This document shows, piece after piece, positions 2,547 through 18,203 of a stretch of 20,000 nucleotides of DNA. Under the pieces are notes generated by a model that did no database searches, was not told the origin of the DNA, and saw only the letters and a list, made by a program, of their open reading frames with translations. This DNA is from an uncultured virus (IMG/VR IMGVR_UViG_3300027227_000004) (Duplodnaviria; Heunggongvirae; Uroviricota; Caudoviricetes): the IMG/VR virus record IMGVR_UViG_3300027227_000004. One strand, 5' to 3'. Made by a program: the position numbers and the translations under genes. Each line of letters starts with the position of its first letter. Positions within the stretch are counted from its first letter, which is position 1.

Positions 2547-2566
2547 TACCCGACCTTAAAGAACAA
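2547..2566 (+). promoter_or_regulatory. Putative phage RNAP promoter, copy 1 (TACCCGACCTTAAAGAACAA; predicted +1 = 2561)
   Basis: Intergenic member of a 20-bp repeat family, followed by a GGAG RBS and ATG 2585. Confidence 0.85.
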
Positions 2567-2584
2567 TACATATACGGAGACAAC

Positions 2585-2839
2585 ATGTCAGACCTACGTA
2601 CAGAGAATTTTCTTGCAATTCTACCCTCACTCCAAACGGGGGATATTCTTATTATTGCAGAAACAGAAGATCTACCTTCATCCGTCTTTCGGATTGATGA
2701 AGTAGGTGATGGCTTCATTACGGGTTATGCATCTTTTGATGATAACGAAGATGAAGAAGAGTATGGTGAACTTTATGAAGAAGATTACCATCTTGTTCAG
2801 CAGGTTATTATTGACCTGACCGAAGTAAAAGAAGAATAA
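2585..2839 (+). CDS. Small highly acidic hypothetical protein
   Basis: GGAG RBS; 24 D/E versus 3 K/R in 84 aa. Confidence 0.8.
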   Translation: MSDLRTENFLAILPSLQTGDILIIAETEDLPSSVFRIDEVGDGFITGYASFDDNEDEEEYGELYEEDYHLVQQVIIDLTEVKEE

Positions 2840-2891
2840 AACAACCTAACGTAAACAACCTTAATTATATTAATCCAAAAGGAAAACAGCA

Positions 2892-3539
2892 ATGGCTATC
2901 GTAAAAAACGTCGAACTATGGTGGGTAAAGTGTGATGCAAAGCGTCCAATCAAGAATCAGGATGCTGGTAAACCAGATTACTGGGAAATTCAGCTTCGCA
3001 CTACTGACAAAAAGCTCGCTCTAGAATGGGCTAAAGAGAATGTTAAGTTCAAACCACTAAAGCGGACTCTTCGTGACGAAGAAGGTAATCCTATTCTAGA
3101 TGATATGGGTGAAGAGCAATCAGAACTTGTTCTATCAGATGAAGGTAAACCCTACTTTGCAGTAAAAGTTCGGCGTAAGGTTCGTAAGAACGAAGAAGAT
3201 AATATTGAACTAGACAACAACGGTGAGCCAAAGATCGTTAAGTTTGTTGGGGGTAATCTTCAGAAGATTGATCCTAATACCGTTGGTAACAAGTCAGTAG
3301 GCAATGTTAACCTTTATCAATACCCCTATTCTTTCAAGCAAAACGGTAAGACTGTAGAAGGTATTGCTAACACACTAATGAGCGTACAAGTCACTAAACT
3401 TCACAAGTATGAAAGCAAGTCCTCAGAAGGATTTGAAATGACAGACATGGAGGTTATTGACGGTTCTGGTAATGTGTCTCGTGCAACCGAGAGTGCAGAC
3501 CACGATGACAACGATATCGACGATGATATCCCGTTTTGA
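2892..3539 (+). CDS. ssb: Single-stranded DNA-binding protein (gp2.5-like)
   Basis: Size, position in the replication module, VGNKSVGNV...SVQVTKL pattern, acidic tail ending DDDIPF. Confidence 0.75.
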   Translation: MAIVKNVELWWVKCDAKRPIKNQDAGKPDYWEIQLRTTDKKLALEWAKENVKFKPLKRTLRDEEGNPILDDMGEEQSELVLSDEGKPYFAVKVRRKVRKNEEDNIELDNNGEPKIVKFVGGNLQKIDPNTVGNKSVGNVNLYQYPYSFKQNGKTVEGIANTLMSVQVTKLHKYESKSSEGFEMTDMEVIDGSGNVSRATESADHDDNDIDDDIPF

Positions 3540-3550
3540 TTAAAACAAGG

Positions 3551-3577
3551 AGGGGGAGCTTAACGGCTCTCCCTTTT
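3551..3577 (+). terminator. Rho-independent terminator
   Basis: Stem AGGGGGAGCT / GGCTCTCCCT with loop TAAC, then a T-tract, just after the SSB stop. Confidence 0.8.
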
Positions 3578-3601
3578 AATTCTAATTAGTCAGGAAATAC
3601 T

Positions 3602-4165
3602 ATGTATAATCGTGATGTAAAGCTAATTCAAGATCATGTTCTAAAGACTGGTCCAGAAGGAATTGTAGACGTATTCACCGCAGTTATTGCGACGATTAGG
3701 ACACCTTTTTACCGCATTGTCCATATAACTAATGACATTAAGAAGAATAAACAAAGCTCGAAACAACTCTGGGGTCATAAAAAAGACAGTTATACTGATG
3801 TAGTAAAACGTAAAGAGGAACTATACGAGTTGTTTGAAAGCTCTGCACCAGAAAAACTCTTATATAAAGAAGTGCTAAAGATAAAAGGTCTTGGTCTAGC
3901 AAAGGCAGGCTTCGCTTTACAGATGCTAGGTTACAATGTTGCCTGTCTTGACACACACAATCTCAAACGACTGGGATATGGCTCATCTCACTTCAATCGT
4001 AAAGATCGCTTAGAAGAATACCTAGAAGTTGTTAAGAAAGAAGGGGCGGAGTACTGGTGGGATACATGGTGTAACTTAATACCACAAACTTCCGGTAAAA
4101 ATCGTGATTTTAAGGATGCTGATGAGGTATCCTATACCCATACTATCGCAGTAAGAGGATACTGA
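3602..4165 (+). CDS. HhH-superfamily DNA glycosylase/AP lyase (Ogg2-like)
   Basis: LKIKGLGLAKAGFALQMLGYNVACLDTHNLK: an HhH hairpin with Lys, then the catalytic Asp-x-His pattern of archaeal/Thermotoga 8-oxoG glycosylases. Confidence 0.7.
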   Translation: MYNRDVKLIQDHVLKTGPEGIVDVFTAVIATIRTPFYRIVHITNDIKKNKQSSKQLWGHKKDSYTDVVKRKEELYELFESSAPEKLLYKEVLKIKGLGLAKAGFALQMLGYNVACLDTHNLKRLGYGSSHFNRKDRLEEYLEVVKKEGAEYWWDTWCNLIPQTSGKNRDFKDADEVSYTHTIAVRGY

Positions 4166-4169
4166 TAAA

Positions 4170-4610
4170 ATGACACATTTTAATATCTATCTTGCAGGCC
4201 CAATTGAGAACGCTACTATCGAAGAAATGAGCTGGTGGCGTAAAGGAATTATTGATGAAATGCAGCTATACCCTGTCAACTTTCTAGATCCTACCCGAAG
4301 AGAACCTGTTCATCTACAGTCTCGTTATGCTCTTACAGGCAATCAACGGCGTAATCTCTACAATCAAATTATGACACAGGATCTTATGGATATCGATCGA
4401 TCAGATCTTATCTTTGCTAATATCCGTTCGGTAGATGGACGAGGTATTGGTACCGCTATGGAGATTATGTATGCAAGTCTTCAGAGGAAACCAATTATTG
4501 CATGGTCAGGGAAAGATGACCAACATCACCCTTTCTATGAGTCGCTTGTAACAGAAAAGCATCACAATCTTGATGAAGCAATCGAAGCAATGCGGAGCTA
4601 TGTAAAATGA
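4170..4610 (+). CDS. Nucleoside 2-deoxyribosyltransferase-like / nucleotide N-hydrolase (NDT/DNPH1 family)
   Basis: IYLAGPI, DLMDIDRSDLIFAN, GIGTAMEIMYA and KPII motifs. Confidence 0.85.
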   Translation: MTHFNIYLAGPIENATIEEMSWWRKGIIDEMQLYPVNFLDPTRREPVHLQSRYALTGNQRRNLYNQIMTQDLMDIDRSDLIFANIRSVDGRGIGTAMEIMYASLQRKPIIAWSGKDDQHHPFYESLVTEKHHNLDEAIEAMRSYVK

Positions 4611-4792
4611 GACTTTACACTGTAGAGCTACTTGATGCAGACGGTTATTGGGAAGCCACTCCAACTGGTTATACTAGTAAAGAGACTGCGATTAATAAGG
4701 CTATGACTATTAAGGAAAAAGAAGAGATGGTCAGAGTAGTAGTTCAAGAAGTTATTTATGAATTTGCAGATGGAGAGGAGTGGTTTGCATGA
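4607..4792 (+). CDS. Hypothetical protein
   Basis: GGAG RBS, ATGA-type coupling to neighbours. Confidence 0.7.
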   Translation: MRLYTVELLDADGYWEATPTGYTSKETAINKAMTIKEKEEMVRVVVQEVIYEFADGEEWFA

Positions 4793-4995
4793 CTATGGAT
4801 GAAGCATTTGTTAGCCCAGAAGATAAATGGACTGACTGGGAACTTCTGGAAGATATGTATGAAGAACGAGCAGCTATCTTACAATTTGAAGCTAATTACT
4901 CTCAATTTGAAGCCGAGAATTTAGCTGCTCAGATGTATGGATTCTATAATAAAGCACATCTAAAATACCATATTCAAGAGCTTAAGGCAAAATGA
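4789..4995 (+). CDS. Hypothetical phage protein (EERAAI motif)
   Basis: GAGGAG RBS favours ATG 4789; the EERAAILQFEA...EAE pattern is common in phage proteins. Confidence 0.7.
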   Translation: MTMDEAFVSPEDKWTDWELLEDMYEERAAILQFEANYSQFEAENLAAQMYGFYNKAHLKYHIQELKAK

Positions 4996-5426
4996 CTAAA
5001 GACTACAACCGAGTAGAAATGCGTATTTTAAAAGAAATACATAAGGAAAAGCAGATGAAAGATAAAGCAGAAGATAGACCGTTTCGAGAGGAGATCCCTG
5101 AACTTATGGGAAAAATCTTTGATGACACACCGGACTTTCATGGTGACTTTAAAAGTATGAGTGAGGAACAGCAAGATGCAATCATTAACCCTCAACACTA
5201 TAAACTGATTTCTCGAGAAGCTTATGAAAAGTTCCCGAATGGTCTTGAATATATGAACTTGATGGAATATATTCTTGCTCATCATAAAGGTGTCGAGGCA
5301 CATTTACTAGGCCAGATTTTTAAGTATGCAATGCGTCTTGGTAAGAAAGATGATGATCTTCAAGATGCCAAGAAAATTCAGTGGTATGCAAACTATCTCG
5401 TTAACGTAATCAAGGAACGTTCCTAA
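4992..5426 (+). CDS. DUF3310 / T7 gp1.7-like protein (putative nucleotide kinase)
   Basis: INPQHY, GQIFKYAMRLGKKD, QDAKKIQWY. Confidence 0.8.
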   Translation: MTKDYNRVEMRILKEIHKEKQMKDKAEDRPFREEIPELMGKIFDDTPDFHGDFKSMSEEQQDAIINPQHYKLISREAYEKFPNGLEYMNLMEYILAHHKGVEAHLLGQIFKYAMRLGKKDDDLQDAKKIQWYANYLVNVIKERS

Positions 5427-5674
5427 TGTCTTATGAAGAAGTCATTGCTCGTGTTATGAGAGTAGCAAGCATTGTCGAGCTTGATGCTAAAAACCAAGAT
5501 AACAAAGAACGTATGAAAGAGATCATTAATCTTGCAAGAATCTTGAAATTTCAAACAAATGAGGTTCAACAAGAACTGAATGATCTAAAAGAATGGGTTG
5601 CTCAATACATTGAAATGTCTCAAGATGACTTTGACAAGTACTGGCGACAACAAAGAGTGAATTTTTACAAGTAA
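5426..5674 (+). CDS. Hypothetical helical protein
   Basis: AAGGA RBS, TAATG overlap. Confidence 0.7.
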   Translation: MSYEEVIARVMRVASIVELDAKNQDNKERMKEIINLARILKFQTNEVQQELNDLKEWVAQYIEMSQDDFDKYWRQQRVNFYK

Positions 5675-5680
5675 TTACGA

Positions 5681-5700
5681 TATCTGACCTTAAAGAACAA
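5681..5700 (+). promoter_or_regulatory. Putative phage RNAP promoter, copy 2 (TATCTGACCTTAAAGAACAA; predicted +1 = 5695)
   Basis: Intergenic, heads the DNA polymerase gene run, followed by an AGGAG RBS. Confidence 0.85.
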
Positions 5701-5713
5701 CTAGGAGAAAACT

Positions 5714-5878
5714 ATGACTGATTATCGGTTTGTTCGTAAGATTGCTAAGATGTATCGTGACATGCATCCTGATTACTCAATCCGGAAAGCTGTGTTTAGG
5801 GCCTACGAAGCTTATGAGTTCTATCGTGAAACTGAAATCAAAATCATGGATGAACACTATGAAAAGGGGTATCAATGA
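5714..5878 (+). CDS. Hypothetical protein, 54 aa (not in ORF track): MTDYRFVRKIAKMY...EKGYQ
   Basis: AGGAG RBS; ATGA overlap with the DNA polymerase start. Confidence 0.75.
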   Translation: MTDYRFVRKIAKMYRDMHPDYSIRKAVFRAYEAYEFYRETEIKIMDEHYEKGYQ

Positions 5879-7860
5879 AACGTTATGTATTCGATATTGA
5901 AACAGATAACTTACTGAGGAAACTGACTACATTTCACTGTGCTGGTGTTAAAGACCATGATACAGGTGAAGAGTGGTTCTACAATTCCAATAATCAAGGC
6001 GACTTTCAGGCATTTCTTGATAAGCTCGATGAAGCCGATGTCATTGTAGCGCATAATGCGTGGGGATTTGACGTCCCTGCGCTTATGAAACTAGCACCTT
6101 ACTGGACACCTAAAGCCAAAGTTACTTGTACAAAAGTGCTATCACAAGTTTTAAACTTCGCAAGATTTTCAACTGAGAGTAAGGACTATCGTAGGTATTT
6201 AGCTGTCAGACAGAAAAGACTAGAAAAGGGCGACACTTCTGTAAAAAAAGTTATTCAAGGTTCAGGACATAGTCTTGCTCGCTGGGGTATTTATCTTAGT
6301 GATTATAAGGGTGAATTTAATGATTTCTCTCAATTCTCTGAAGAGATGTATGAATACTTAAAGCAAGATGTTAGACTAGGTGCTAAGGTGTATGCAACAC
6401 TCTTAGACGAGCTTAAAGTGCATATCACTAAGAGTAAGAGCCGTAAGATTCTAGATGCTATTGAAGTTGAGCATCAAATGGAAAGGATTATGACTGAGGA
6501 AACTCAGAACGGTTGGAAAATGAATTTAAACGGGCTTTCTGATATTAAGCAGAAGCTTGAAGACAAAATTAAAGAATATTCCGATGAGATTAATCCAAAG
6601 CTTCTTGTTTATGTTACTAGCCCTGATATGTCAGGCAAAGCTCTAAATGAACTTAGAGAGCAGATTAAAGAATTAAAAAAGAAAGGCGAGCTAGAGGAAA
6701 ACTGGCCCGAAGCAAAATATGTCAAGACGGTCTTCACCAAGAAAGGTAAACTTACAGCCCACGTATCCAATTATTTTGAGCTTGATCCTGACACCTCAAT
6801 TGATTCTAGCCCCGTTCTCGGCCCTTACACTCGTGTCTCTCTTACTCGTGGTGATATCGGTAATACAGATCAGGTCAAGGATTACTTATCTACAATCGGG
6901 TGGGAGCCAGATGAATGGAACTGGAAGAGAGACGAAAATGGAAAATTCAACAAGACTTCCTCAAAGCTCACAGAGTCTTCACTTGAGCCACTTGGAAGAG
7001 TAGGCGAAGTAATTAATGAGTTTTATACGCTACGTTCACGTCTTAGTATTATTAATGGTTGGGATGAACATATTGACGTTAATAACCGTTTACACGGTGA
7101 CGTCTTTAATATCGGAACACCTACCTTCAGACAGACCCACAATATCATCGCAAACCTTCCCTCCGGAAGCGCCACACTAGGCCCAGAAATCCGTAGTGCA
7201 TTTATTGCAGATGAGGGAAAAGTTCTAGTATCTGCTGACTCCGCTGCTTGTCAGTTGAGGCTTCTTGCTCACTTTATGGATGATCCAAAGTTTACTAGAG
7301 AGTTGCTTGAAGGTGATGTTCATCAACTAAATGCTGATATTATTGAATGCACACGACCACAAGCTAAAAGATTTATCTTTGCTTACCTTTATGGTGCGGG
7401 TGCTCCTAAACTTAGTGGGTATATCGATAAATCAGTAGAAGAAACTAAGAAGTCAATTTCTCGTTATAAGAAGAAGCTACCTAAGTTAGCTAAACTTATC
7501 GACAATGTTTCTTCTCAAGTTAGACAGAATGGGTACGTTGTTGGTCTCGATACAAGAAAACTATGCCTAGATGCTTCTGAACAGCACAAAGCTCTTAACT
7601 ACCTTATTCAAGGTGCAGAGGCTGTAATTATGAAAGCTACTGTTGTAATGATTGATCAGAAACTAAAAGAAGCAAATATTGACTTTAAACATCTGCTATT
7701 CTATCACGATGAACATACTGTTGAAGTTCGTGAAGATCAGGCTGAAGAAGCTCGTGGTATTATTATGAAATGCTTTGCAGAAGCACCGAAGGCCTATGGT
7801 ATCAACATTATGACCTGCGGCGATTGCAAAATTGGTAAAGATTATTACGAAGTACACTAA
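5875..7860 (+). CDS. polA: Family A DNA polymerase with 3'-5' exonuclease
   Basis: ExoI FDIET, ExoII HNAWGFD, ExoIII YLKQDV; motif A DSAACQLR, motif B RPQAKRFIFAYLYG (Phe at the 762-equivalent), motif C HDE. Confidence 0.97.
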   Translation: MKRYVFDIETDNLLRKLTTFHCAGVKDHDTGEEWFYNSNNQGDFQAFLDKLDEADVIVAHNAWGFDVPALMKLAPYWTPKAKVTCTKVLSQVLNFARFSTESKDYRRYLAVRQKRLEKGDTSVKKVIQGSGHSLARWGIYLSDYKGEFNDFSQFSEEMYEYLKQDVRLGAKVYATLLDELKVHITKSKSRKILDAIEVEHQMERIMTEETQNGWKMNLNGLSDIKQKLEDKIKEYSDEINPKLLVYVTSPDMSGKALNELREQIKELKKKGELEENWPEAKYVKTVFTKKGKLTAHVSNYFELDPDTSIDSSPVLGPYTRVSLTRGDIGNTDQVKDYLSTIGWEPDEWNWKRDENGKFNKTSSKLTESSLEPLGRVGEVINEFYTLRSRLSIINGWDEHIDVNNRLHGDVFNIGTPTFRQTHNIIANLPSGSATLGPEIRSAFIADEGKVLVSADSAACQLRLLAHFMDDPKFTRELLEGDVHQLNADIIECTRPQAKRFIFAYLYGAGAPKLSGYIDKSVEETKKSISRYKKKLPKLAKLIDNVSSQVRQNGYVVGLDTRKLCLDASEQHKALNYLIQGAEAVIMKATVVMIDQKLKEANIDFKHLLFYHDEHTVEVREDQAEEARGIIMKCFAEAPKAYGINIMTCGDCKIGKDYYEVH

Positions 7861-8252
7861 TGGGTGAGTATAATAAAGAAATACGTAACAGAATTAAGCT
7901 TTCTGTTGCAGCTTATGCTTATGCGTACAAGAATGAATCTATTATGTCTGACGCAAAGTTTGATGAGCCTTCTAGGGTTCTATCACAAGGAAGTATGATT
8001 ATGGAAACTAATAAACAGCTACTGGCAATTCTTGACAGCGCAGAAAATCTTCGTCTGCGTACTACGATGTCTCGAAATAACAATATTAAGAGGAAATTGA
8101 TGGATGCAGCAAATGAAGGACTTAATTACACAAGTTTTCCAGAAGAAACTCTCACTAAAGAAGATATTTTCAGCCTTAAAGAATTGGGCTACACAATTTA
8201 TCACGTTGTTGCTCCGTTCAGTAAAAAGACCACATATGAAGTTTGTTGGTAA
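7860..8252 (+). CDS. NAD-ligase domain Ia-like N-terminal fragment in frame with a hypothetical protein (probable second start at 8001)
   Basis: AAYAYAYKNESIMSDAKFD resembles the ligase Ia Y-Y...D-x-x-Y/F-D motif; internal AAGGA RBS before ATG 8001. Confidence 0.5.
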   Translation: MGEYNKEIRNRIKLSVAAYAYAYKNESIMSDAKFDEPSRVLSQGSMIMETNKQLLAILDSAENLRLRTTMSRNNNIKRKLMDAANEGLNYTSFPEETLTKEDIFSLKELGYTIYHVVAPFSKKTTYEVCW

Positions 8253-8460
8253 ATACTTCTTTAGAGTGTTTACTGCCCTGTCTGTATTAGTTAACGTAAT
8301 GTTAGGTGGGCAACTAGGACAAACTTTTTCAGCTAGAAACTGGCAGTGGAAGAAAGATGGTAAGCTAAATCTAGTATGGTTAATTGATTTCTTATGTCTG
8401 CCGTTAGAAACAAATCACTGCTCCCACGCTTGGGTGTGGTGGAAAACAAGGAGGTGGTAA
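8236..8460 (+). CDS. Hypothetical phage protein, hydrophobic N-terminus
   Basis: N-x-x-LGG...TFSAR...W-x-ID...HC pattern; start moved to 8236 to avoid a long overlap. Confidence 0.65.
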   Translation: MKFVGKYFFRVFTALSVLVNVMLGGQLGQTFSARNWQWKKDGKLNLVWLIDFLCLPLETNHCSHAWVWWKTRRW

Positions 8461-8684
8461 TGTTCACTGTAGAGTTTGAATCAGATGCTGCTGTCATTCG
8501 TTCTCTCGCAGAAGATGATATGCATGAGGATATTGAAATTATTATTGGTGATGATGGAACCGTATTTATACGGCAATGGCAAGACTGGAAGGATGAATAC
8601 GACGTTTTACACATCAGCTGGCAGCAGCTAATTGATGTTGTTTCAGCTATTAATTCCCCTGAAGGCGCATTCTATAGGAGATAA
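8460..8684 (+). CDS. Hypothetical acidic protein
   Basis: AGGAGG RBS, TAATG coupling at 8460. Confidence 0.75.
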   Translation: MFTVEFESDAAVIRSLAEDDMHEDIEIIIGDDGTVFIRQWQDWKDEYDVLHISWQQLIDVVSAINSPEGAFYRR

Positions 8685-8686
8685 CT

Positions 8687-8971
8687 ATGCGTACTGAAAT
8701 CTATAACGAACTTGCTCTTCACTTTGTTGAAAATGAAACTACTGATGAGACTCTTTTCACAGGCTTTTCAAGCGAATCTGGTGAAGTTATGAAAGAACGA
8801 ATGAAAGAAGTTCGCAAAAAGATGGATCGAACAGATGAAATTATTGACGAATGTTCTGATGTTCTATGGTATATTACCGTTATTGCTCATAAACGAGGTA
8901 AGACTTTAAAAGATCTGATGGATCATAACATTTCTAAACTTGAGCTTCGTCTTCTTGGAAACAAGGTGTAA
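8687..8971 (+). CDS. mazG: MazG-like NTP pyrophosphohydrolase
   Basis: ESGEV...DECSDVLWY...NISKL-x-x-R. Confidence 0.8.
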   Translation: MRTEIYNELALHFVENETTDETLFTGFSSESGEVMKERMKEVRKKMDRTDEIIDECSDVLWYITVIAHKRGKTLKDLMDHNISKLELRLLGNKV

Positions 8972-8972
8972 C

Positions 8973-9170
8973 ATGAAACCTAAATTTAAACACGACTGCG
9001 AGGATCGTTCTTGCTGTCGTTTTATTACACACCGCAAGGGTAAAGACATTTATACCTATAATATTGGTCAAGGAATTCTTGTAAGATTTGGAGACGAACC
9101 ACAAGATAATTTAACTTATGACCTAGAAGTATTAACAAAAATTGGAGTACTTGATGATTGGATTAGTTGA
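8973..9170 (+). CDS. Hypothetical protein (HDC...CC)
   Basis: AAGGT RBS before ATG 8973. Confidence 0.65.
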   Translation: MKPKFKHDCEDRSCCRFITHRKGKDIYTYNIGQGILVRFGDEPQDNLTYDLEVLTKIGVLDDWIS

Positions 9171-9879
9171 CGGTGATGGATTTATTTATTTTGCTTATTG
9201 GAAGAAAGATAATCTCACCGCTGCTGTTGCTCACCTTCACGAGCTAATTGATAACGCAAAAAATGAAAACTTTTGTGATTATTTAGCTATTGCGGTGGGA
9301 GGCTCTGATAACTGGCGAAATGATTTTTATTGGGGTTACAAGAAGTCAGTAGGTCGTGAGAATTCTCGTAAAACAATGCCTGAATGGTTGCCTGACCTTA
9401 AAGCAGAGCTTGCTAATCGTTCAGATGCAATCCTGACAGACAACATTGAGGCAGACGATGTGATTCGAATGTGGGCTGAACAATGTAAGGCGCATAATAA
9501 GGATTACATTGTAATTAGTCATGACAAAGATCTTGACTGTATTGAAGGCTTGCACTTTGATCCTCGTAAATGGAGAAACTATCACGTTTCTGAAGAACAA
9601 TCAGATGTTTCTTATTGGAAACAATTACTTATGGGGGATGGAATTGATAACATTCCAGGAATTAAGGGAATTGGTCCTAAGAAAGCGGATAAGCTGCTTG
9701 AAGGGCTTCAAACGCATGAAGAGAGAAGGAGACTTGTTTGCCAAGAGTATTATAAAGTATACGGTAATGAAGGATATGCTAACCTTCTTGCTAATGGCCG
9801 TCTTCTTCATATTATGCGGCATGTTAATGATTACTTTAGCTTAAGTAAGGAAGAATATGAAAAAGCCATTAGCTGTTAA
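9154..9879 (+). CDS. 5'-3' exonuclease / RNase H (T7 gp6-like)
   Basis: VDGD, EADD, DKDL, GDGIDNIPGIKGIGPKKA (H3TH); GGAG RBS before ATG 9154. Confidence 0.93.
   Translation: MIGLVDGDGFIYFAYWKKDNLTAAVAHLHELIDNAKNENFCDYLAIAVGGSDNWRNDFYWGYKKSVGRENSRKTMPEWLPDLKAELANRSDAILTDNIEADDVIRMWAEQCKAHNKDYIVISHDKDLDCIEGLHFDPRKWRNYHVSEEQSDVSYWKQLLMGDGIDNIPGIKGIGPKKADKLLEGLQTHEERRRLVCQEYYKVYGNEGYANLLANGRLLHIMRHVNDYFSLSKEEYEKAISC
9389..9408 (+). promoter_or_regulatory. Degenerate promoter copy (TGCCTGACCTTAAAGCAGAG)
   Basis: 16/20 match to consensus with the core intact; inside the exonuclease gene, upstream of the primase-helicase. Confidence 0.5.
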
Positions 9880-10333
9880 CGAGTTAGGGCATTGGCAATT
9901 TAAAGGAAAACTAGACCATAGTGACTACTTTGGATTTCTCTATGCTATTGAGAATAAAGAAACTGGTCAGTGGTATATCGGTAAAAAGAACTTTTTTATC
10001 CGTGGCAAGAAATCATCAAAACAGTATGGTAAAGAACATAGTTGGAGAACATACACTGGATCGTCAGCAGCACTAAATAAAGACATCTCAAAGTACGGTA
10101 AAGACAAATTTAACTTCATAATTATTGATCTTTACAAAACTAAAGGTGGTCTTTATTACGCCGAAGCATATACACAAATGTTGCTTGAAGTAATGACTAC
10201 TTACTTGACTGACGGTAAAACTCCACGGTTTTACAATAGACAAATTGCTGCCATTCGCTTCGTTCCAAAAGAGGAGGTAAGCCTCAAAACAAAACGATTC
10301 ATAACAAAATTAAAAGGAAAACTTTATGCCTAG
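9857..10333 (+). CDS. GIY-YIG family endonuclease
   Basis: GFLYAIENKETGQWYIGKK, YTGSS, conserved E and RFYN. Confidence 0.8.
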   Translation: MKKPLAVNELGHWQFKGKLDHSDYFGFLYAIENKETGQWYIGKKNFFIRGKKSSKQYGKEHSWRTYTGSSAALNKDISKYGKDKFNFIIIDLYKTKGGLYYAEAYTQMLLEVMTTYLTDGKTPRFYNRQIAAIRFVPKEEVSLKTKRFITKLKGKLYA

Positions 10334-10514
10334 TTTAGCAGTTGCTCTTTACATTTCAAGTCTTATCACGATAGGTGCTCAAATACTATCTATGATGTTA
10401 GGTTTTCCTCTTATGAATCCTCTAAGTGCTATAATGATTTTTATGTTCTTTCAAGAACTTTCTAAACTCGTAATCCAATTCTCAGGAAGTGAAGATGGGG
10501 AAGATAGTAAGTAA
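10326..10514 (+). CDS. Small membrane protein
   Basis: Two hydrophobic stretches, AAGGA RBS. Confidence 0.65.
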   Translation: MPSLAVALYISSLITIGAQILSMMLGFPLMNPLSAIMIFMFFQELSKLVIQFSGSEDGEDSK

Positions 10515-12201
10515 AAACCAACCTTGTATTTATTGCGGAAGTAAGGACAATAGACAGGTATATAATGACGGGTGGTCACATTGTTTTACCCCCGGATGCC
10601 CAAAGCCACATGTAAACGAGGACACAATGGAAATTGATGATTTAGAAGCGGAGTTTGCTGCTGTAAACGGTAGCAATCAGAAAGCTTCTGGAAATAAGCT
10701 AACTGTTGAAGAGATTTATAACGAGTACCCTTTTGCAGCCGATACAGAACGGCTTATCTCAATCGATGTTATGAAGTATTATGGCTGCAAAGTTGGTTAT
10801 GATGGTTCTGGCAAGATTAACGAAAAGTTTTATGCCTACAACTTCGATGAAAATAAAGTACCTCAAGCATACAAGTCACGAGTTCTACCCAAGGACTTCG
10901 GCAAGCGAGGCTCTATTGGTAAAGTAAAAGGTTTATATGGCTCTCATCTTAATTCTGGGGGTAAGCGCCTTGTTATCACTGAAGGAGAAGAAGATGCTCA
11001 TGCGATTCAAGCCGCATGGTTCAAGAAGTACAAAACGTTTTATCCTGTAGAGTCTCTTCGTGGTGCTAGTGTAACTAAAGATCTCATCGAAGATCGGGCT
11101 CGTATTCGTAACTTTGAAGAAGTTATCCTCTGGCTTGATGGTGATGAAGCGGGTGCAGTAGCCACTAAGGAGGCTGCTCGCATCATTGGTTATGATAAGG
11201 TAAAAATTGTAAAGGCTAATGAGAAAGATGCCTCCGATGTATGGGTTAAGTCCAAAGGAGATCCTAATCAGCTATTAAAGTTTATTTACAATGCTCAACC
11301 TTACACTCCTGCAGGGATTCTTACAAAAGACCAACTATGGTCTCAGCTAGAAGCCTACAATGAAATCGAATCAGTACCTTATCCTTCTTTTATGACAGGG
11401 CTTAACGACAAACTAAAGGGGATGCGTTTCGGTGAGATTACTTTGTGGACTTCTGGTACAGGTTCTGGTAAATCTACCTTGCTTCGAGAGATTGCACTAC
11501 ATCTTGTTGAAACAACAGAAGATAAAATCGGTATCATTTCTCTAGAAGAAAGCCCTGCAGAAACTGCTCGTAAGATGTCGGGAATGAAGATTAATAAGAA
11601 TCCCGCCAAGGCTGAAATCCCTATTGAAGAACTTAAAATCGGTTTTGATGGGACTTTCGGCACGGATCGTATTATGGTTCTAGATCATCAGGGCAGTATT
11701 TCTGATGGCTCGATTATGGACTTTCTTGAGTATATGTGTCTAAGCGGTTGTAAATATTTGTTTATTGACCACATTACAATTCTTGCCTCTGAGGGCACTG
11801 AGGGGCTAACAGGTAACGAAGCCGTTGATAAGATTATGAATGATCTTCTTCGTCTTGTAAAGAAGCATAGTGTGTGGATTGGGCTTATCTCCCACCTTCG
11901 TAAAGCAGATAACAAGAAGAAGTCGTTTGAAGAGGGCCGACTGCCTTCTATGGATGATATTCGTGGTTCTGGCTCAATTAAACAGATCTCAATGGATATT
12001 ATTGCGTTCTCCCGCAATGTAAGTTCTGCTATTGAGTCCGAGAGAAATACAATTCTAACTAAGGTTCTTAAGTGCCGATATACAGGTCTAACTGGTCCTT
12101 CTGGGGCACTTACTTATGACTTTGATACAGGCAGACTTAAACGAGGTGAAGGTTTTGATAGTATCGATGACGAGTTTGATCTAGAAGGAATTGAGTTGTG
12201 A
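10495..12201 (+). CDS. Primase-helicase (T7 gp4-like)
   Basis: Zn ribbon CIYC...CFTPGC, TOPRIM EGEED and DGDEAG, Walker A GTGSGKST, IDH, SHLRK, DIRGSGSIKQ, KCRYTG. Confidence 0.96.
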   Translation: MGKIVSKNQPCIYCGSKDNRQVYNDGWSHCFTPGCPKPHVNEDTMEIDDLEAEFAAVNGSNQKASGNKLTVEEIYNEYPFAADTERLISIDVMKYYGCKVGYDGSGKINEKFYAYNFDENKVPQAYKSRVLPKDFGKRGSIGKVKGLYGSHLNSGGKRLVITEGEEDAHAIQAAWFKKYKTFYPVESLRGASVTKDLIEDRARIRNFEEVILWLDGDEAGAVATKEAARIIGYDKVKIVKANEKDASDVWVKSKGDPNQLLKFIYNAQPYTPAGILTKDQLWSQLEAYNEIESVPYPSFMTGLNDKLKGMRFGEITLWTSGTGSGKSTLLREIALHLVETTEDKIGIISLEESPAETARKMSGMKINKNPAKAEIPIEELKIGFDGTFGTDRIMVLDHQGSISDGSIMDFLEYMCLSGCKYLFIDHITILASEGTEGLTGNEAVDKIMNDLLRLVKKHSVWIGLISHLRKADNKKKSFEEGRLPSMDDIRGSGSIKQISMDIIAFSRNVSSAIESERNTILTKVLKCRYTGLTGPSGALTYDFDTGRLKRGEGFDSIDDEFDLEGIEL

Positions 12202-12467
12202 ACAAAGAGATAAATATGGCAGCACACGAGTATTTAGTGTTTTACTCCATTATTGCTAATCTATTAAGAGTAATTGAAGAGTACGAAGCAATGCTTCCCA
12301 TTGAGCAGTCAAAGTTAGAAGCACTACCTGATCGTTTTTATGATTGGGTAGTTGGCTTTATGGAAGAAGCTAACGATATGCCAGATGAAAATTTTAAAAT
12401 GTTAGTTGACTATTTCGAGAATAGTTTAAATAAGAATACTGATTTCCACAAAAAAGGATTACAATAA
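12198..12467 (+). CDS. Hypothetical protein
   Basis: AGGA RBS, GTGA overlap. Confidence 0.7.
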   Translation: MNKEINMAAHEYLVFYSIIANLLRVIEEYEAMLPIEQSKLEALPDRFYDWVVGFMEEANDMPDENFKMLVDYFENSLNKNTDFHKKGLQ

Positions 12468-12718
12468 TGAGTGATGAACTAAACGAACATCTATGGGATT
12501 ATGCCAACAAGGTAATGTACCCTACAATTAAAACTGAAGATGAATGTGATAAGTTTTTAACAGGTCTTAAGAAGTTTAATGCATCTGAGAAGGAGCTTCT
12601 TAAAGACTATTGGACACTAATTACTTTCGGCTCAATTCCATACTACGAAGATGATGTATTTAAAGAAGAAGAATTAGCTGACGTTAAAGAACAAGAAGAA
12701 ACTGAAGAAGAAGAATAA
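12467..12718 (+). CDS. Hypothetical protein with acidic tail
   Basis: AAGGA RBS, TAATG overlap. Confidence 0.7.
   Translation: MSDELNEHLWDYANKVMYPTIKTEDECDKFLTGLKKFNASEKELLKDYWTLITFGSIPYYEDDVFKEEELADVKEQEETEEEE
12675..12694 (+). promoter_or_regulatory. Putative phage RNAP promoter, copy 3 (TAGCTGACGTTAAAGAACAA; predicted +1 = 12689)
   Basis: 18/20 match; lies in the 3' end of the previous ORF, 35 nt before the RNR ATG. Confidence 0.8.
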
Positions 12719-12729
12719 GGAGAAATAAA

Positions 12730-14595
12730 ATGGACGCCTATAGAAGCTTTATCCACTTGTCTCGCTACTCACGTTTTCTAGATGACAAAGGTCGTCGTGA
12801 ATCATGGGAAGAGACTGTAGATCGTGTTATTAACTTCTGGAAGAAGCAAGTTGGAAATAAACTTTCTGACACTGATTTTAAAGAAATCGAGCAAGCTATT
12901 CTCAACCATGATGTTATGCCTTCTATGCGGTCAATGTGGTCGGCAGGTGAAGCACTAGAGAAGAATCACTTCCGTGGCTATAACTGTGCTTTTACCGCTG
13001 TAGATCATCAACGTGTATTCGATGAAATCCTGTATGTACTTATGGCAGGTACAGGTGTTGGCTTCTCAGCAGAAGCTAAATACGTCAATAAACTACCTAT
13101 TATCAATGACACCTTCACTAAGACTGAGCGTGTTATTCAAGTAGAAGATTCAGCCGAAGGTTGGGCCAAGGCCCTCCGTAAACTTATTGCAGACCTCTAT
13201 CTAGGAAACGAACATGAATGGGATTATAGCAAGATTAGGCCCGAAGGCGCTCGACTTAAGACTATGGGCGGAAGAGCTTCTGGTCCGAAACCACTTATGG
13301 ATCTTTTTGACTTTGTAACCAAAACATTTAAAAATGCCGCTGGTCGTAAACTTCGACCCATTGAAGTTCATGACATGGTATGTAAAATCGCAGAAATTGT
13401 TGTTGTAGGTGGTGTACGCCGTTCTGCACTACTTTCACTCTCTGACCTTGGTGATCCTGAGATTCGTGATTGCAAATCAGGACAGTGGTGGGTAAATACC
13501 CCACATCGTGCTCTTGCTAATAACTCCGGTGCGTATGAACAGAAGCCCTCCATGGCAGTTTTCATGGAAGAGTGGATGTCTCTCATGAAGTCAGGCTCCG
13601 GTGAGCGAGGTATTGTGTCTCGTTACGGTCTTCAGGAAATGGCTCCAGAACGCCGTGATGGCGAACAGCTAGTAGGGCTTAACCCTTGTGCGGAGATTGC
13701 TCTTCGTTCTGCTCAACTCTGCAACTTATCAGAGGTTGTTGCTCGTGAAAACGATACTAAAGAAGATCTGCTTCGTAAAGTTCGTATTGCAACAATTCTT
13801 GGTACTCTTCAAGCTACACTTACTGACTTCAAATATGTTCGTTCAGTATGGCGTAAGAACTGTGAGGAAGAACGACTTCTTGGTGTTTCACTGACTGGTA
13901 TTCAGGACTGTAAACTACTTCGTAATCCTGATCCACAACTACTAGAGGATATGAAAGCGCATGCAGTGGATATTAATCGTGAGTATGCTGGAATTCTTGG
14001 TATTAATTCTGCTGCCGCTATTACTACCGTCAAGCCTTCCGGCACGGTATCTCAACTTGTTGACAGCTCTTCAGGTATTCACGGGCGCTTTGCACCTTAT
14101 TATATCCGTCGTGTACGCCAAGCGAACCATGACCCACTAACACAAATGCTAAAAGATCAGGGCGTTCCTAATGAACCTGATGCGATGAACCCACTTAAAA
14201 CAACTATCTTTAGCTTCCCAATCAAGTCTCCAAAAGGTGCTACACTTGCTAACAATCAAACAGCTATTGAACAGCTAGAAAATTGGCTTGTGTTTAAGAA
14301 GTATTGGGCAGAGCACTCTGTATCCGTTACTGTTTATGTAAAAGAACACGAGTGGCTTGAAGTTGGTGATTGGGTTTACAAGCATTTCGATATGGTAACT
14401 GGCATCAGTTTCCTACCTTACTCTGAACACACTTATCAACAAGCGCCTTACGAGGATATTAACGTGCTAGAGTTTGATAAGCTTGTTGCAGCTATGCCTG
14501 TAGTTGACTTCTCTAAGCTCCCAGAGTATGAACTTGAAGACAACACTGAAGGTGCCCAAACTCTAGCTTGCGCCGCTGGTGGTTGCGAAATCTAA
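12730..14595 (+). CDS. nrdJ: Class II (adenosylcobalamin-dependent) ribonucleotide reductase
   Basis: GGVRRSA, NPCAEI (thiyl Cys), TVKPSGTVSQL, C-terminal CAAGGCEI; no small subunit in the window. Confidence 0.95.
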   Translation: MDAYRSFIHLSRYSRFLDDKGRRESWEETVDRVINFWKKQVGNKLSDTDFKEIEQAILNHDVMPSMRSMWSAGEALEKNHFRGYNCAFTAVDHQRVFDEILYVLMAGTGVGFSAEAKYVNKLPIINDTFTKTERVIQVEDSAEGWAKALRKLIADLYLGNEHEWDYSKIRPEGARLKTMGGRASGPKPLMDLFDFVTKTFKNAAGRKLRPIEVHDMVCKIAEIVVVGGVRRSALLSLSDLGDPEIRDCKSGQWWVNTPHRALANNSGAYEQKPSMAVFMEEWMSLMKSGSGERGIVSRYGLQEMAPERRDGEQLVGLNPCAEIALRSAQLCNLSEVVARENDTKEDLLRKVRIATILGTLQATLTDFKYVRSVWRKNCEEERLLGVSLTGIQDCKLLRNPDPQLLEDMKAHAVDINREYAGILGINSAAAITTVKPSGTVSQLVDSSSGIHGRFAPYYIRRVRQANHDPLTQMLKDQGVPNEPDAMNPLKTTIFSFPIKSPKGATLANNQTAIEQLENWLVFKKYWAEHSVSVTVYVKEHEWLEVGDWVYKHFDMVTGISFLPYSEHTYQQAPYEDINVLEFDKLVAAMPVVDFSKLPEYELEDNTEGAQTLACAAGGCEI

Positions 14596-14615
14596 TACCT
14601 GACATTAAAGAACAA
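14596..14615 (+). promoter_or_regulatory. Putative phage RNAP promoter, copy 4 (TACCTGACATTAAAGAACAA; predicted +1 = 14610)
   Basis: Starts immediately after the RNR stop, intergenic, 19/20 match. Confidence 0.85.
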
Positions 14616-14642
14616 CACCTAGGCAAGTGTATAAAAGGCTTA
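14615..14642 (+). ncRNA. Putative compact H-type pseudoknot, copy A
   Basis: Stem 1 ACAC/GTGT, 8-nt loop CTAGGCAA; loop TAGGC pairs with GCTTA (one G-U); homologous to 17450-17476. Confidence 0.55.
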
Positions 14643-14662
14643 TTATCACATAGGAGAGTAAT

Positions 14663-14842
14663 ATGAAGTATTTAAAAAAAGTGTCAGAGTTCAATGTAGA
14701 GTTTATCTCTAATGGTTTTATTGTTTCTTATAATGGTTATAATGAGAACGACGAATGGGAGTCTGAAAAGTTTTATGCTTCAACAATGTTAAAACTTAAA
14801 CAAATGATCAATATCATTGACACTATGAACAAGGATAAGTAA
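14663..14842 (+). CDS. Hypothetical protein, 59 aa (not in ORF track): MKYLKKVSEFNVEFISNGF...
   Basis: AGGAG RBS, open frame to TAA 14840-14842. Confidence 0.75.
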   Translation: MKYLKKVSEFNVEFISNGFIVSYNGYNENDEWESEKFYASTMLKLKQMINIIDTMNKDK

Positions 14843-14843
14843 T

Positions 14844-15044
14844 ATGAAAATCGGATTTCTACCTGCACTAGCCCTGATTTTTATCACCCTTAAACTTACA
14901 AACTACATTGCATGGTCTTGGTTTTGGGTTGTTAGCCCAATTGTGATTCCTCTAATTATTTCGCTACTTATCATTTTTATTGCTGCAATTATTTCACCTG
15001 CTTCAACAAAAGAAGCACTATCACGTTACAAGGGTAAACGCTAA
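14844..15044 (+). CDS. Small membrane protein (LKL...I-x-WSW-x-WV-x-x-P family)
   Basis: Hydrophobic, with a characteristic WSWFWV motif. Confidence 0.75.
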   Translation: MKIGFLPALALIFITLKLTNYIAWSWFWVVSPIVIPLIISLLIIFIAAIISPASTKEALSRYKGKR

Positions 15045-15178
15045 TGGCTAAAGTTAATACATCTAAGTCTGTTCATACTCCAATTGTAAAACGTACTTCG
15101 ATTGGTAAAGGTAAGTTAAAGACCTCTTCAATGAACAAACACAAGCGCCGTAATAAGGGCATGTCTCATAATGGCTGA
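15044..15178 (+). CDS. Basic 44-aa peptide (not in ORF track): MAKVNTSKSVHTPIVKRTSIGKGKLKTSSMNKHKRR...
   Basis: TAATG coupling, fills the gap exactly, very K/R-rich. Confidence 0.65.
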   Translation: MAKVNTSKSVHTPIVKRTSIGKGKLKTSSMNKHKRRNKGMSHNG

Positions 15179-15428
15179 TAAGGTTATCAACTTTTTAGAA
15201 ATTTCTCAAAAAAAACGTGAAGAGGAAGACTACAACATCAACATCAATAAACATGATAACATCTTAGATGTTCTTGAAGAAGAGTATCCGATGGGTGGTA
15301 TTATCATTACTATTGATGAAGAAGGTATCGGGGTAGCCGCTACCGTAGAAGATTATGAAACAATGCGTAATGCAATGGTTTCTGCAATGATTAAATTATT
15401 AGAGAGTGGGCAAGATGAACTTGAATGA
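15171..15428 (+). CDS. Hypothetical protein
   Basis: ORF in a tightly packed gene run. Confidence 0.7.
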   Translation: MADKVINFLEISQKKREEEDYNININKHDNILDVLEEEYPMGGIIITIDEEGIGVAATVEDYETMRNAMVSAMIKLLESGQDELE

Positions 15429-15699
15429 TGCTTTTTATTATCTAGAGAATGCTAAAATCGATATCGACAATGCTATTAGTCCTTACGGACGAACGCTTCG
15501 TGGGCTTCTTACTGAGATTTATGATCTTGGTTATAGCGATGGCTCAGAACAATCAGTAGAAGAATGCGACTGTGATAACGTATTTGAAGAAGGCTATGAT
15601 GAAGGTTATAACTCAGGTTATGATACAGGAAGCGATGAAGGCTACGAGCAGGGTTATGATGACGGTTACAATGCCTGCATTGACGAGTATGCCCTATGA
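15415..15699 (+). CDS. Acidic protein with GYxx repeats (FliH/Yae1-like GxxxG pattern)
   Basis: EEGYDEGYNSGYDTGSDEGYEQGYDDGY. Confidence 0.7.
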   Translation: MNLNDAFYYLENAKIDIDNAISPYGRTLRGLLTEIYDLGYSDGSEQSVEECDCDNVFEEGYDEGYNSGYDTGSDEGYEQGYDDGYNACIDEYAL

Positions 15700-16058
15700 A
15701 TAATGTAATTCTCCAAAGGCTTAAAGAAGTTGCGGAGGACTCTGAACCTGTATCGAAGGTGCGGCTAGCCGCCGCTATATTATACAAGAACAAGATCGTA
15801 AGCATTGGTAGGAATCAGTATAAAACTCATCCTATCATGCTTAGATTTTGTAAAAATCCGGAGGCTATTTATCTCCATGCTGAAGTTGATGCCATTAACC
15901 GAGCAAAAAAGATTTTAACTGTCTCTGAGCTTTCTAAAGCAACTCTTGTTGTTATTCGTATTAAAAGAGACGGTTCTTACGCTATGGCTAAGCCTTGTGA
16001 AGGCTGTCAAGATTGTATCAATCACCACAACATCAAAAAGGTGTTCTACACACAATGA
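15696..16058 (+). CDS. Zn-dependent cytidine/deoxycytidylate deaminase-fold protein
   Basis: HAE and PCEGC motifs. Confidence 0.85.
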   Translation: MNNVILQRLKEVAEDSEPVSKVRLAAAILYKNKIVSIGRNQYKTHPIMLRFCKNPEAIYLHAEVDAINRAKKILTVSELSKATLVVIRIKRDGSYAMAKPCEGCQDCINHHNIKKVFYTQ

Positions 16059-16294
16059 TTATTGAGATTCACACAAGTAAAAACCCGCAATCAGATCAAC
16101 ATTTAATGCGAGAACTCTCTATGAATCTAAGCGTTCTATTTAATCTTCAGAACGCTCAAGAGGTTACTATCTCAACTGGCTATGGGGTCATTAAATCTAA
16201 GAAGGTAAATCTTCGTTATATAACAAAATTTTACCCTTATGATGATATTGAGGGCGTATTGGAGAAAGAAAATGTACCTGATCATCGGTCGTGA
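16055..16294 (+). CDS. Hypothetical protein
   Basis: AAGGT RBS, ATGA overlap at 16055. Confidence 0.6.
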   Translation: MIIEIHTSKNPQSDQHLMRELSMNLSVLFNLQNAQEVTISTGYGVIKSKKVNLRYITKFYPYDDIEGVLEKENVPDHRS

Positions 16295-16502
16295 TAATTG
16301 TACTTTTTGCGATAAAGCAAAAGCCCATATGGAGCGAAATTCCTTAAAGTACATTTATAAAAACATCAGTAAGATGGATGATATTGAATATAAATTTTAC
16401 GTTGATCTAGTTAAAGAGGATATCGGTATGCGAACGCTCCCTGTTATTTTTAATTTAATCGGCGGATATGATCAATTAATTAATGGAAAAAATAATGAGT
16501 GA
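16272..16502 (+). CDS. Glutaredoxin / NrdH-like redoxin
   Basis: CTFC, RTLPVIF, IGGYDQL; GGAG RBS before ATG 16272. Confidence 0.9.
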   Translation: MYLIIGRDNCTFCDKAKAHMERNSLKYIYKNISKMDDIEYKFYVDLVKEDIGMRTLPVIFNLIGGYDQLINGKNNE

Positions 16503-16587
16503 AAAAATTAGTATTGACGGTAGAACATACTTCGTGGACGAAATGAATGAAGATCAAAAATTAAAGAATTCACCAGAAAATGACTGA
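16495..16587 (+). CDS. 30-aa ORF, possibly a truncated gene (MSEKISIDGRTYFVDEMNEDQK...)
   Basis: Bridges glutaredoxin and the next gene with short overlaps at both ends. Confidence 0.4.
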   Translation: MSEKISIDGRTYFVDEMNEDQKLKNSPEND

Positions 16588-17041
16588 ACAAAAACCTAAA
16601 CGAAAAGTAGGTAGGCCACGAGCCGAACCTATTAATAAAGTACCTGACCTTAAAGAACAACGGCAAAACAAGCAAGAGAAGCTAGGTCCGAAACGATCAG
16701 CAGAGTTACTCTATAAAGAACTTACTTATGTGACTAGTATTGGTGTTTACGGTATCGATGATTATACTAAAGCTTTAATTGATGAACTTTGGAAAGACCC
16801 AGAAAAGACAATCGTTGCTACGGATACAAATCAGTCTAGACTGGATAATATCAACCGAGTGATTTCTCAACGGAGCTTCTCTATGTATCGCTGGGAGGCT
16901 GTCCCTTCTTCTGGATTCATTGAAGAACCCGTATGTGATGTGATTATTGCATCTAAAGATTGTTCTAAAGAATTAAAATCTCGACCAAACCCGTACGATA
17001 CTCCTATTATTGTTATGGAAGATGTAAATTATGCAGATTGA
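16580..17041 (+). CDS. Hypothetical protein: AT-hook-like N-terminus plus a possible degenerate Rossmann-like domain
   Basis: KRKVGRPR; SIGVYG...IVATD...DVIIAS strand pattern. Confidence 0.6.
   Translation: MTEQKPKRKVGRPRAEPINKVPDLKEQRQNKQEKLGPKRSAELLYKELTYVTSIGVYGIDDYTKALIDELWKDPEKTIVATDTNQSRLDNINRVISQRSFSMYRWEAVPSSGFIEEPVCDVIIASKDCSKELKSRPNPYDTPIIVMEDVNYAD
16641..16660 (+). promoter_or_regulatory. Putative phage RNAP promoter, copy 5 (TACCTGACCTTAAAGAACAA; predicted +1 = 16655)
   Basis: Perfect consensus; intragenic, upstream of the tRNA/AdoMetDC block. Confidence 0.8.
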
Positions 17042-17478: not shown

Positions 17479-17555
17479 GGTTCCTTAGCTCAATTGGATA
17501 GAGCAACTGCCTTCTAAGCAGTAGGTTACAGGTTCGAGTCCTGTAGGGACCACCA
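17479..17555 (+). tRNA. tRNA-Arg (anticodon TCT), CCA encoded
   Basis: Acceptor GGTTCCT/AGGGACC, D arm GCTC/GAGC, anticodon arm ACTGC-CTTCTAA-GCAGT, T arm ACAGG-TTCGAGT-CCTGT, ACCA end. Confidence 0.97.
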
Positions 17556-18014: not shown

Positions 18015-18203
18015 ATGAATTGGGTTACTCGTTATTGGAATTACTTGAAGACTTGGCGAGCACATCGTGAAGCTATTAAGCAACTTAATAGCCTTACAGA
18101 TAATGAGCTAAAAGATATTGGTATTAGCCGATCTGATATCGATCGCCTTATATGGCTAGAAGAAGATAAAACAATGCGTGGGCGTGGTAAAGGAATGAAC
18201 TAA
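18015..18203 (+). CDS. DUF1127 (YjiS-like) small protein
   Basis: WRAHREAIKQLNSLTDNELKDIGISRSDI. Confidence 0.9.
   Translation: MNWVTRYWNYLKTWRAHREAIKQLNSLTDNELKDIGISRSDIDRLIWLEEDKTMRGRGKGMN

Follow-up and report, generated by a model that had tools for sequence, protein, structure and literature searches.

A dispersed repeat as the probable promoter of a compact T7-type RNA polymerase in a Naomiviridae-like siphovirus

Introduction

Which polymerase reads a 20-bp motif that recurs along one strand of a phage genome encoding its own single-subunit RNA polymerase (RNAP)? The question is raised by IMG/VR record IMGVR_UViG_3300027227_000004, from an uncultured virus of the Caudoviricetes. The window analysed here is 20,000 nucleotides long and corresponds to positions 2372-22371 of a 43-kb phage contig (G000); unlabelled positions are those of the window, negative ones lying upstream of it on the contig. 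A preliminary description had proposed that the motif is the promoter of the RNAP encoded at 44..2206, with transcription starting at the G of GAACAA. This assignment needed testing because the phage group has a second RNAP, fused to a MuF head domain. The assignment holds, and we consider it very probable that the motif is a middle/late promoter of the phage's own 720-aa T7-type enzyme, a reading supported by covariation between promoter bases and polymerase loop, strand bias, synteny and further copies where they had been predicted.

Results

Exact matching to TANCYGACNTTAAAGAACAA recovered five copies in the window, all on the plus strand (2547..2566, 5681..5700, 12675..12694, 14596..14615 and 16641..16660, with predicted starts at 2561, 5695, 12689, 14610 and 16655), and none in 200 shuffled sequences even when two mismatches were allowed. 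The previously reported coordinates, strand and sequences were thereby reproduced, as was the count of 17 invariant positions among 20, variation being restricted to positions 3, 5 and 9. Three copies are intergenic and directly precede genes with a ribosome-binding site, as had been described: that at 2547 would serve an 84-aa gene and the gene for a gp2.5-like single-stranded DNA-binding protein (SSB), that at 5681 lies ahead of a 54-aa gene and DNA polymerase, and that at 14596 immediately follows the nrdJ stop codon, the distances from +1 to ATG being 24, 19 and 53 nt. The copy at 12675 does end 35 nt before nrdJ, as had been stated, but it occupies the last codons of an open reading frame (ORF; 12467-12718) that had gone unmentioned; the copy at 16641, upstream of small genes and a tRNA-Arg, also lies within an ORF (16580-17041), a placement absent from the earlier account. 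In DSS3_VP1 (hereafter VP1), a cultured relative, the counterpart of the nrdJ-proximal copy sits before nrdB, and in the related records G003 (directly) and G005 a copy again follows nrdJ. The weaker copy reported at 9389 was also recovered (9389..9408, plus strand); it lies within the exonuclease gene, lacks -13 and +2 to +4, and is either a weak promoter or a relic. G003 and G005 have an intergenic copy just ahead of this gene.

More copies had been predicted before structural operons, and in the contig and its relatives copies do stand ahead of terminase, tail and portal genes. Beyond the window the contig holds four, all on the plus strand, at -211 (before the RNAP gene), 21324 (before the terminase region), 27687 (in the tail region) and 34368 (after phoH). 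Together with four copies in G001, a record 99.84% identical over an 8,752-bp overlap, the nine on the contig define a conserved core from -14 to +3 (TAsCYGACnTTWAAGAA); positions +4 to +6 (CAA) vary. Positions -17 to -13 are A/T-rich, with the TA at -14/-13 invariant in all 13 copies, and the RNAP segment that corresponds to the AT-rich recognition loop of T7 (about residues 17-24) is shorter than in T7.

The orientation of the copies was counted in 21 records, partly non-independent (G000/G001, G004/G020 and G006-G008), each scanned with its own 15-mer at up to two mismatches. There were 105 copies on the coding strand and 2 on the opposite strand, so the random orientation named beforehand as speaking against a promoter did not occur. 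Copies precede the genes for SSB, ribonucleotide reductase, terminase, portal and tail proteins, whereas the stretch from the tape measure gene to the RNAP gene has almost none. VP1 has 14 coding-strand copies of TAGG(T/G)(G/T)(A/G)CG(T/C)TAAA followed by G, and the other cultured relative, DSS3_PM1 (PM1), has 14 of its own version, with none on the other strand. Two or three tandem copies stand before the portal gene in VP1 (19203-19341), G001, G002, G003 and G004; G003 also has a perfect opposite-strand copy inside a tail fibre gene (position 16048, reading orientation).

Synteny was surveyed at 296 loci, 257 of which contained both the RNAP C-terminus and the SSB gene, with a site-calling score that used the flanks only and ignored -12 to -5. 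A promoter-shaped site was called in the slot between these genes in 243 of the 257 loci, compared with 12 calls in 972 control stretches of coding sequence. The 14 loci without a call form four groups, two of which are the window's own clade, where a gene is inserted at this place. About 30 distinct promoter 14-mers occur among the 66 RNAPs retained after dereplication.

The product of 44..2206 (plus strand) is a compact single-subunit T7-type RNAP of 720 aa (PHROG 414, E 2e-132; PF00940; alignments to T7). Its catalytic residues D376, R496, K500, Y508 and D659 correspond to T7 D537, R627, K631, Y639 and D812 and are invariant in 100 homologues. The AlphaFold model (predicted local distance difference test, pLDDT, 90) superposes on the T7 promoter complex 1CEZ with a VIA Z of 34.8 and a root-mean-square deviation (rmsd) of 4.8 over 656 aligned residues (T7 75-883), and matches the N4 enzymes more poorly (Z about 20). 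Among 8,000 proteins scored, 295 belong to this family of about 720 aa at E 1e-50, full-length homologues having 717-755 aa. The specificity loop (residues 593-621; 1820..1906, plus strand), identified from two strands in the model, the alignments and the top covariation, includes R599, E601, I608 and K610, which three alignments agree in equating with T7 R746, N748, R756 and Q758. A beta-hairpin assigned by DSSP in the model (residues 94-117; 323..394, plus strand), whose residue 111 covaries with base -5, would by its position be the equivalent of the T7 intercalating hairpin.

If this enzyme reads the motif, its loop should vary with the bases that it contacts. Permutation-corrected mutual information was calculated over all 720 columns after proteins shorter than 650 aa had been dropped and the set dereplicated to 66 rows at 95% or 33 rows at 80%. 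At 95%, the column ranked first of 720 was 599 for base -7, 610 for -8 and -9, 608 for -10, 601 for -11 and -12, and 111 for -5; at 80%, 599/-7, 610/-8, 608/-10, 601/-11 and 111/-5 kept this rank. Mutual information yields false positives, as PMC11880802 itself warns; the top ranks here coincide with the structurally expected residues. R599 is paired with C-7 in 45 of 45 cases and no other residue goes with C; D, E, T or K at this position accompanies G-7, Q accompanies A, and V accompanies T. Similarly, K610 occurs with A-8 (31/32), R610 with C (18/19), D or E610 with G (11/11) and Q610 with T (3/3), while D or E601 goes with C-11 in 25 of 27; for base -11 of T7-like promoters, PMC11880802 describes C as the partner of D and G as the partner of K. 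Within one clade, 11 RNAPs divide between two promoter types; only six columns tell the types apart, and five of these are in the loop. A FastTree tree from which loop and hairpin were excluded shows 7 changes at base -7, 13 at -8 and 14 at -11, and the independent contrasts all lean in the expected direction.

Linkage of loop and SSB-slot promoter through recombination was also considered; the top ranks do not go to the C-terminal columns that lie closer to the promoter, and copies far from the slot match the slot motif of their own record. The idea that the several motif forms of VP1 serve two polymerases was discarded, as the forms share one register and differ only at -10 to -8 and -5. The VP1 loop (L053) has W610, which goes with a promoter variable at -10 to -8 (GTG, TTA, TGA, GTA), as if this contact were relaxed.

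The covarying pairs equal the position pairs published for T7-like enzymes, namely 746/-7, 748/-11 and -10, 756/-10 and -9, and 758/-8 (PMC11880802), which argues for +1 at the G of GAACAA, as originally proposed. The same register is supported by the predicted 5' ends of the transcripts: 45 of the 66 rows (20 of the 33) have a stem of at least four pairs that begins exactly at this G, no other offset reaches more than 12, and the stems change on both sides (GAAC/GTTC, GACC/GGTC, GACT/AGTC).

Several observations weigh against assigning the motif to the 720-aa enzyme. The test was not blind, since neither the flank score nor the candidate residues had been fixed before sites were inspected, and the window's copy at 2547 was entered in the 66-row set by hand because, with the extra gene inserted, it no longer lies in the SSB slot; this copy also has no 5' stem. 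The pair 601/-12 drops to rank 25 at 80%, no loop residue among the 720 columns ranks first for base -6, and the top partners of -6, -3 and -1 look like shared ancestry. Independent pairs on the tree are few: only R610/C-8 is significant (p 0.016; 7.5 same and 0 opposite of 8), and R599/C-7 (3/3), K610/A-8 (5/6, p 0.06), D/E610 (3/3), D/E601 (2.9/4), K/R601 (5.5 same and 0.6 opposite of 8) and S/T111 (3/4) are not significant individually. Two of the five window copies are within coding sequence, and the scarcity of copies in early regions has two exceptions: the copy at -211, which stands before a terminator-like hairpin as well as before the RNAP gene, and one in G011. Finally, about 160 T7 residues are absent from the enzyme, T7 residues 1-70 and much of 150-225 having no counterpart, and a cofactor may be needed.

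The most direct competitor for the motif is the second polymerase. G001, whose 720-aa RNAP is identical to that of the window, encodes at G001:C1:19767-24263 (minus strand; L074) a protein of 1,498 aa, annotated as a head protein only, in which a MuF minor head domain is fused to a complete T7-fold RNAP; the window's contig stops before the head genes. VP1 gene 28 (1,463 aa; 21242-25633) has a MuF domain, a weak RNA_pol match and intact motifs. The fusion was found in 5/5, 8/27, 1/5 and 5/9 related records, including all five that are at least 90% complete, and its C-terminal part has 422 homologues which, where named, are head morphogenesis proteins. A model of residues 330-1498 (pLDDT 83) matches T7 RNAP with a VIA Z of 26.8 and an rmsd of 3.8 over 525 aligned residues. 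At the profile level the two RNAP families match weakly (probability 11%, E 0.003), and we therefore do not claim a recent duplication. With its complete T7 fold and intact motifs the fusion could in principle be the enzyme that reads the window motif, one copy of which precedes the 720-aa RNAP gene. The variable bases, however, follow the loop of the 720-aa RNAP; in G033, G012 and VP1 the late motifs differ, yet the MuF-RNAP loops are similar and the early motif is the same; and the window motif is almost absent from early regions. We accordingly regard recognition by the fusion as very improbable.

Early regions contain another repeat, TGRG-N8-10-(GCA/GTA/CCC/GAA)TCTATA, of which 66 loci have 72 copies in the 242 kb upstream of the RNAP gene, always on the coding strand, and none in 478 kb scanned downstream of that gene. 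One copy lies at -847 (G000:C1:1524). There and in the early regions of relatives the repeat, TGRG..GCATCTATA followed by ATG and often by a small stem, is a candidate promoter for the virion RNAP. The three forms of the early motif correspond to three forms of the MuF-RNAP loop, though with only two independent changes, and in 47 of 86 early sites a stem begins at one of the two bases that directly follow TCTATA (20 also at offset -6). We moderately favour the view that the early motif is the promoter of the MuF-fused RNAP. Its rival is a host sigma-70 promoter, for which TATAAT within 62 of the 72 sites would speak; none of the 86 early sites, however, exceeds three of six matches to TTGACA at a spacing of 16-18 nt. 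A third repeat, ACACC..AACA.G.TGTA.AACTGTTCA, stands before early genes in G004, G018 and G020.

It could also be supposed that the window motif is bound by a phage regulator acting on host RNA polymerase, for instance a tandem helix-turn-helix (HTH) protein, or that it is a stoperator, since asymmetric same-strand repeats can be stoperators and a tandem-HTH gene lies upstream of the RNAP gene in G000, VP1, G004 and G005. A regulator would not explain why the bases covary with the RNAP loop at the positions known from T7 or why a stem begins at the +1 of the T7 register; the motif is moreover non-palindromic, and sigma-70-like sites are not enriched in the window (45, against 52 in shuffles). 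This makes a regulator site hardly credible. Least credible of all is that the copies are coding coincidences or RNA-processing sites, for although the genome is A-rich, those at 9389, 12675 and 16641 encode xxDLKE/ADVKE peptides in frame and relatives have low-scoring look-alikes within genes, the motif is missing from all 200 shuffles, the relatives' copies are mostly intergenic and right after stop codons, and the conserved part is upstream of the stem and tracks the polymerase loop.

Discussion

Our analysis favours a model in which the 720-aa RNAP binds duplex DNA and reads -11 to -7 with its specificity loop, E601 probably contacting C-11, K610 A-8 and R599 C-7. The hairpin of residues 94-117 would lie near -5 and help to open the A/T-rich stretch from -5 to -1, and RNA would begin at G+1, in many cases with a stem right at its 5' end. 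Promoters of this kind are predicted to drive the middle genes, for replication and nucleotide metabolism, and the late genes, for packaging, head and tail. One step upstream, the MuF-fused RNAP would probably be carried in the head and transcribe the early genes, including that of the 720-aa RNAP, from a different motif. MuF is a head component (PMC5512222) and the fusion gene follows the portal gene; on the strength of this domain and position we infer that the enzyme is packaged and injected. Taken as a whole, the picture that we judge to be somewhat favoured is that Naomiviridae-like siphoviruses base their entire transcription on two T7-family enzymes: the MuF-RNAP would read TGRG, about 9 nt and GCATCTATA followed by A, thereby yielding the 720-aa RNAP, which would read the window motif for middle and late genes; four diversified loop residues would have produced a panel of about 30 promoters, including a variable -7, and the templates would contain deoxyuridine (dU) in at least the cultured members.

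The closest familiar systems are those of T7, T3 and SP6 (Autographiviridae), which share with the present one the fold, the catalytic residues, the register, C-7 with R746 (here R599), an A/T-rich -4 to -1 and G+1, and in which the same loop positions set specificity. The enzyme here has 720 aa against 883 in T7 and 874 in SP6, with about 30% identity. T7-like pairs are reported to keep R with C at -7 in 91% (PMC11880802), whereas here residue 599 varies (R, D, E, Q, T, V, K) together with the base. The likeness to SP6 noted previously was confirmed with promoters from the SP6 genome (ATTTAGGTGACACTATA followed by GAA): TA at -14/-13, TGAC at -10 to -7 and GAA are common to both. The nine copies match the SP6 promoter at 11-15 of 20 positions and T7 phi10 at 8-12 of 20. 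Orthogonality to SP6, which had been suggested, is therefore doubtful, and cross-reading by SP6 plausible; cross-reading by T7 is unlikely because G-9 and A-8 differ from the C and T of T7. A short-tail morphogenesis module of the T7 type was not found; the enzyme belongs to a long-tailed phage, and in G001 the tape measure gene encodes 1,622 aa and the head genes are of the Noahvirus type.

The presence of two polymerases suggests an N4-like relay in a siphovirus. N4 (Schitoviridae) also has two enzymes of the T7 family, of which one is carried in the virion and the other is small, its N-terminal domain being shortened (PMC4496689); in the present phages, virion carriage is the part that we infer. 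The resemblance has limits. The N4 virion RNAP has about 3,500 aa and uses hairpin promoters, whereas the second enzyme here is a MuF fusion of 1,450-1,600 aa. N4 RNAPII is a gp15/gp16 heterodimer that needs gp1 and gp2 and a minimal promoter from -7 to +2, whereas the small enzyme here is one polypeptide whose promoter has an upstream element of 14 bp. N4 late genes use host sigma-70, whereas promoters assigned to the small enzyme here also precede structural genes. Both RNAP models are nearer T7 than the N4 enzymes. Thermus phage P23-45, as described in PMC10770324, is likewise long-tailed; the RNAP that starts its infection is joined to a structural protein, and the phage has a second, non-virion RNAP and two distinct motifs. 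Its enzymes, however, are homologues of the two-barrel RNAPs of cells, and it is the tape measure, not MuF, that carries the fused one.

Phage RNAP promoters as such are familiar; what sets this system apart is a compact enzyme with a variable -7 code and a MuF-fused partner. The main text of the paper on the isolation of VP1 and PM1 (PMC8323127) contains no mention of 'RNA polymerase' and a single, unrelated 'promoter'; in its tables VP1 gene 56 is named RNA polymerase, and gene 28 appears as 'minor head protein-like'. In the genome mining of Zhu et al. (2025), as far as the accessible parts show, VP1 and PM1 stand under genomes without identified promoters, the VP1 repeat being the top unassigned group, and these phages go unmentioned in the main text of PMC13029058, on mining of single-subunit RNAPs. 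We did not find the promoter assignment in print in a search that left most subscription papers and bioRxiv supplements outside, nor the MuF-RNAP fusion, judged by title or abstract and with most subscription papers again outside. A residue-to-base code on a small T7-type scaffold is a source of candidate orthogonal pairs, and the promoter assignment supplies a probable transcription plan for a widespread group of marine phages, reported to be abundant and under-sequenced (PMC12669031).

The comparison of genes identifies the phage as a relative of Noahvirus DSS3_VP1 (Naomiviridae). The nearest isolates by RNAP are VP1 and PM1 (57% identical, all else being at about 30%), two cultured Naomiviridae that are siphoviruses with dU DNA (PMC8323127). 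Naomiviridae core genes and synteny are shared with both at the level of genes: DNA polymerase is 48%, primase 50% and terminase 71% identical, as are portal (49%) and capsid (63%) in G001, in the same order. VP1 also has the MuF-RNAP and the early motif, as relatives do; it differs in having NrdAB and the HD-domain gene 50, where the window has NrdJ. Two further phages have related proteins: EBPR siphovirus 1 (JF412302.1) has matches to 91% of the MuF-RNAP, spread over four genes as annotated, one of them HNH, and Pelagibacter phage Kolga (MT375529.1) has a related MuF without the RNAP part, plus an RNAP at 30%.

dU DNA has been shown for VP1 and PM1 only (PMC8323127). Gene 50 of VP1, the proposed dTTPase, has no match in G000 or G001 at E 1e-4, and ThyX and ThyA were found in none of six records, four of them at least 90% complete. 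The window contains genes that act on nucleotide pools, encoding a nucleoside deoxyribosyltransferase-like protein (4170-4610), a MazG-like protein (8687-8971), NrdJ (12730-14595) and cytidine deaminase (15696-16058), the last a member, like the dTTPase, of the pathway proposed for dU; the set is compatible with modified DNA but does not prove it. Promoter recognition by the multisubunit AR9 enzyme reportedly depends on dU. As cultured relatives with uracil-DNA exist, the need for or tolerance of dU by a single-subunit RNAP, and injection of the MuF-RNAP, are directly testable.

The surroundings of the RNAP gene have features of their own. A tandem-HTH gene, a possible regulator or cofactor, lies at G000:C1:1767-2159 (window -604 to -212), just before the terminator and RNAP gene, with homologues upstream of RNAP in VP1, G004 and G005; that it supplies the missing N-terminal part of the RNAP was rejected, as it matches HTH families only. 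Between it and the RNAP gene (G000:C1:2180-2414; window -191 to 43) are a GC hairpin with a long T run, a short frame (about 20 codons) for a hydrophobic peptide and a further hairpin just before the ribosome-binding site, a layout found in many relatives; a strong hairpin with a T run stands shortly upstream of the RNAP gene in most. The gene itself spans about 2.7-2.9 kb in relatives L047-L051 and L059-L061, and the MuF-RNAP is interrupted in others (G002:C1:25454-25854; G039), in both cases as if by introns or inteins.

Elsewhere in the window, an intrinsic-terminator-like hairpin of 13 pairs follows the SSB gene (3548..3577, plus strand; consensus match only). The 187-aa protein encoded at 3602-4165 has no Pfam, PHROG or NCBIfam match, and its Atlas neighbours provide a lead to an Ogg/HhH-type DNA glycosylase fold. 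A GIY-YIG (SegE-like) endonuclease gene at 9857-10333 lies between the exonuclease and primase-helicase genes. GTDB genomes gave no usable host signal, the nine loci found there all being in metagenome-assembled bins, one at 58% identity. Downstream of the last window copy, tRNA-Arg(TCT) (17479-17555) is followed by genes for S-adenosylmethionine decarboxylase (17583-17945) and a DUF1127 protein (18015-18203), the latter a family that we take to be typical of Alphaproteobacteria and hence a hint at the host.

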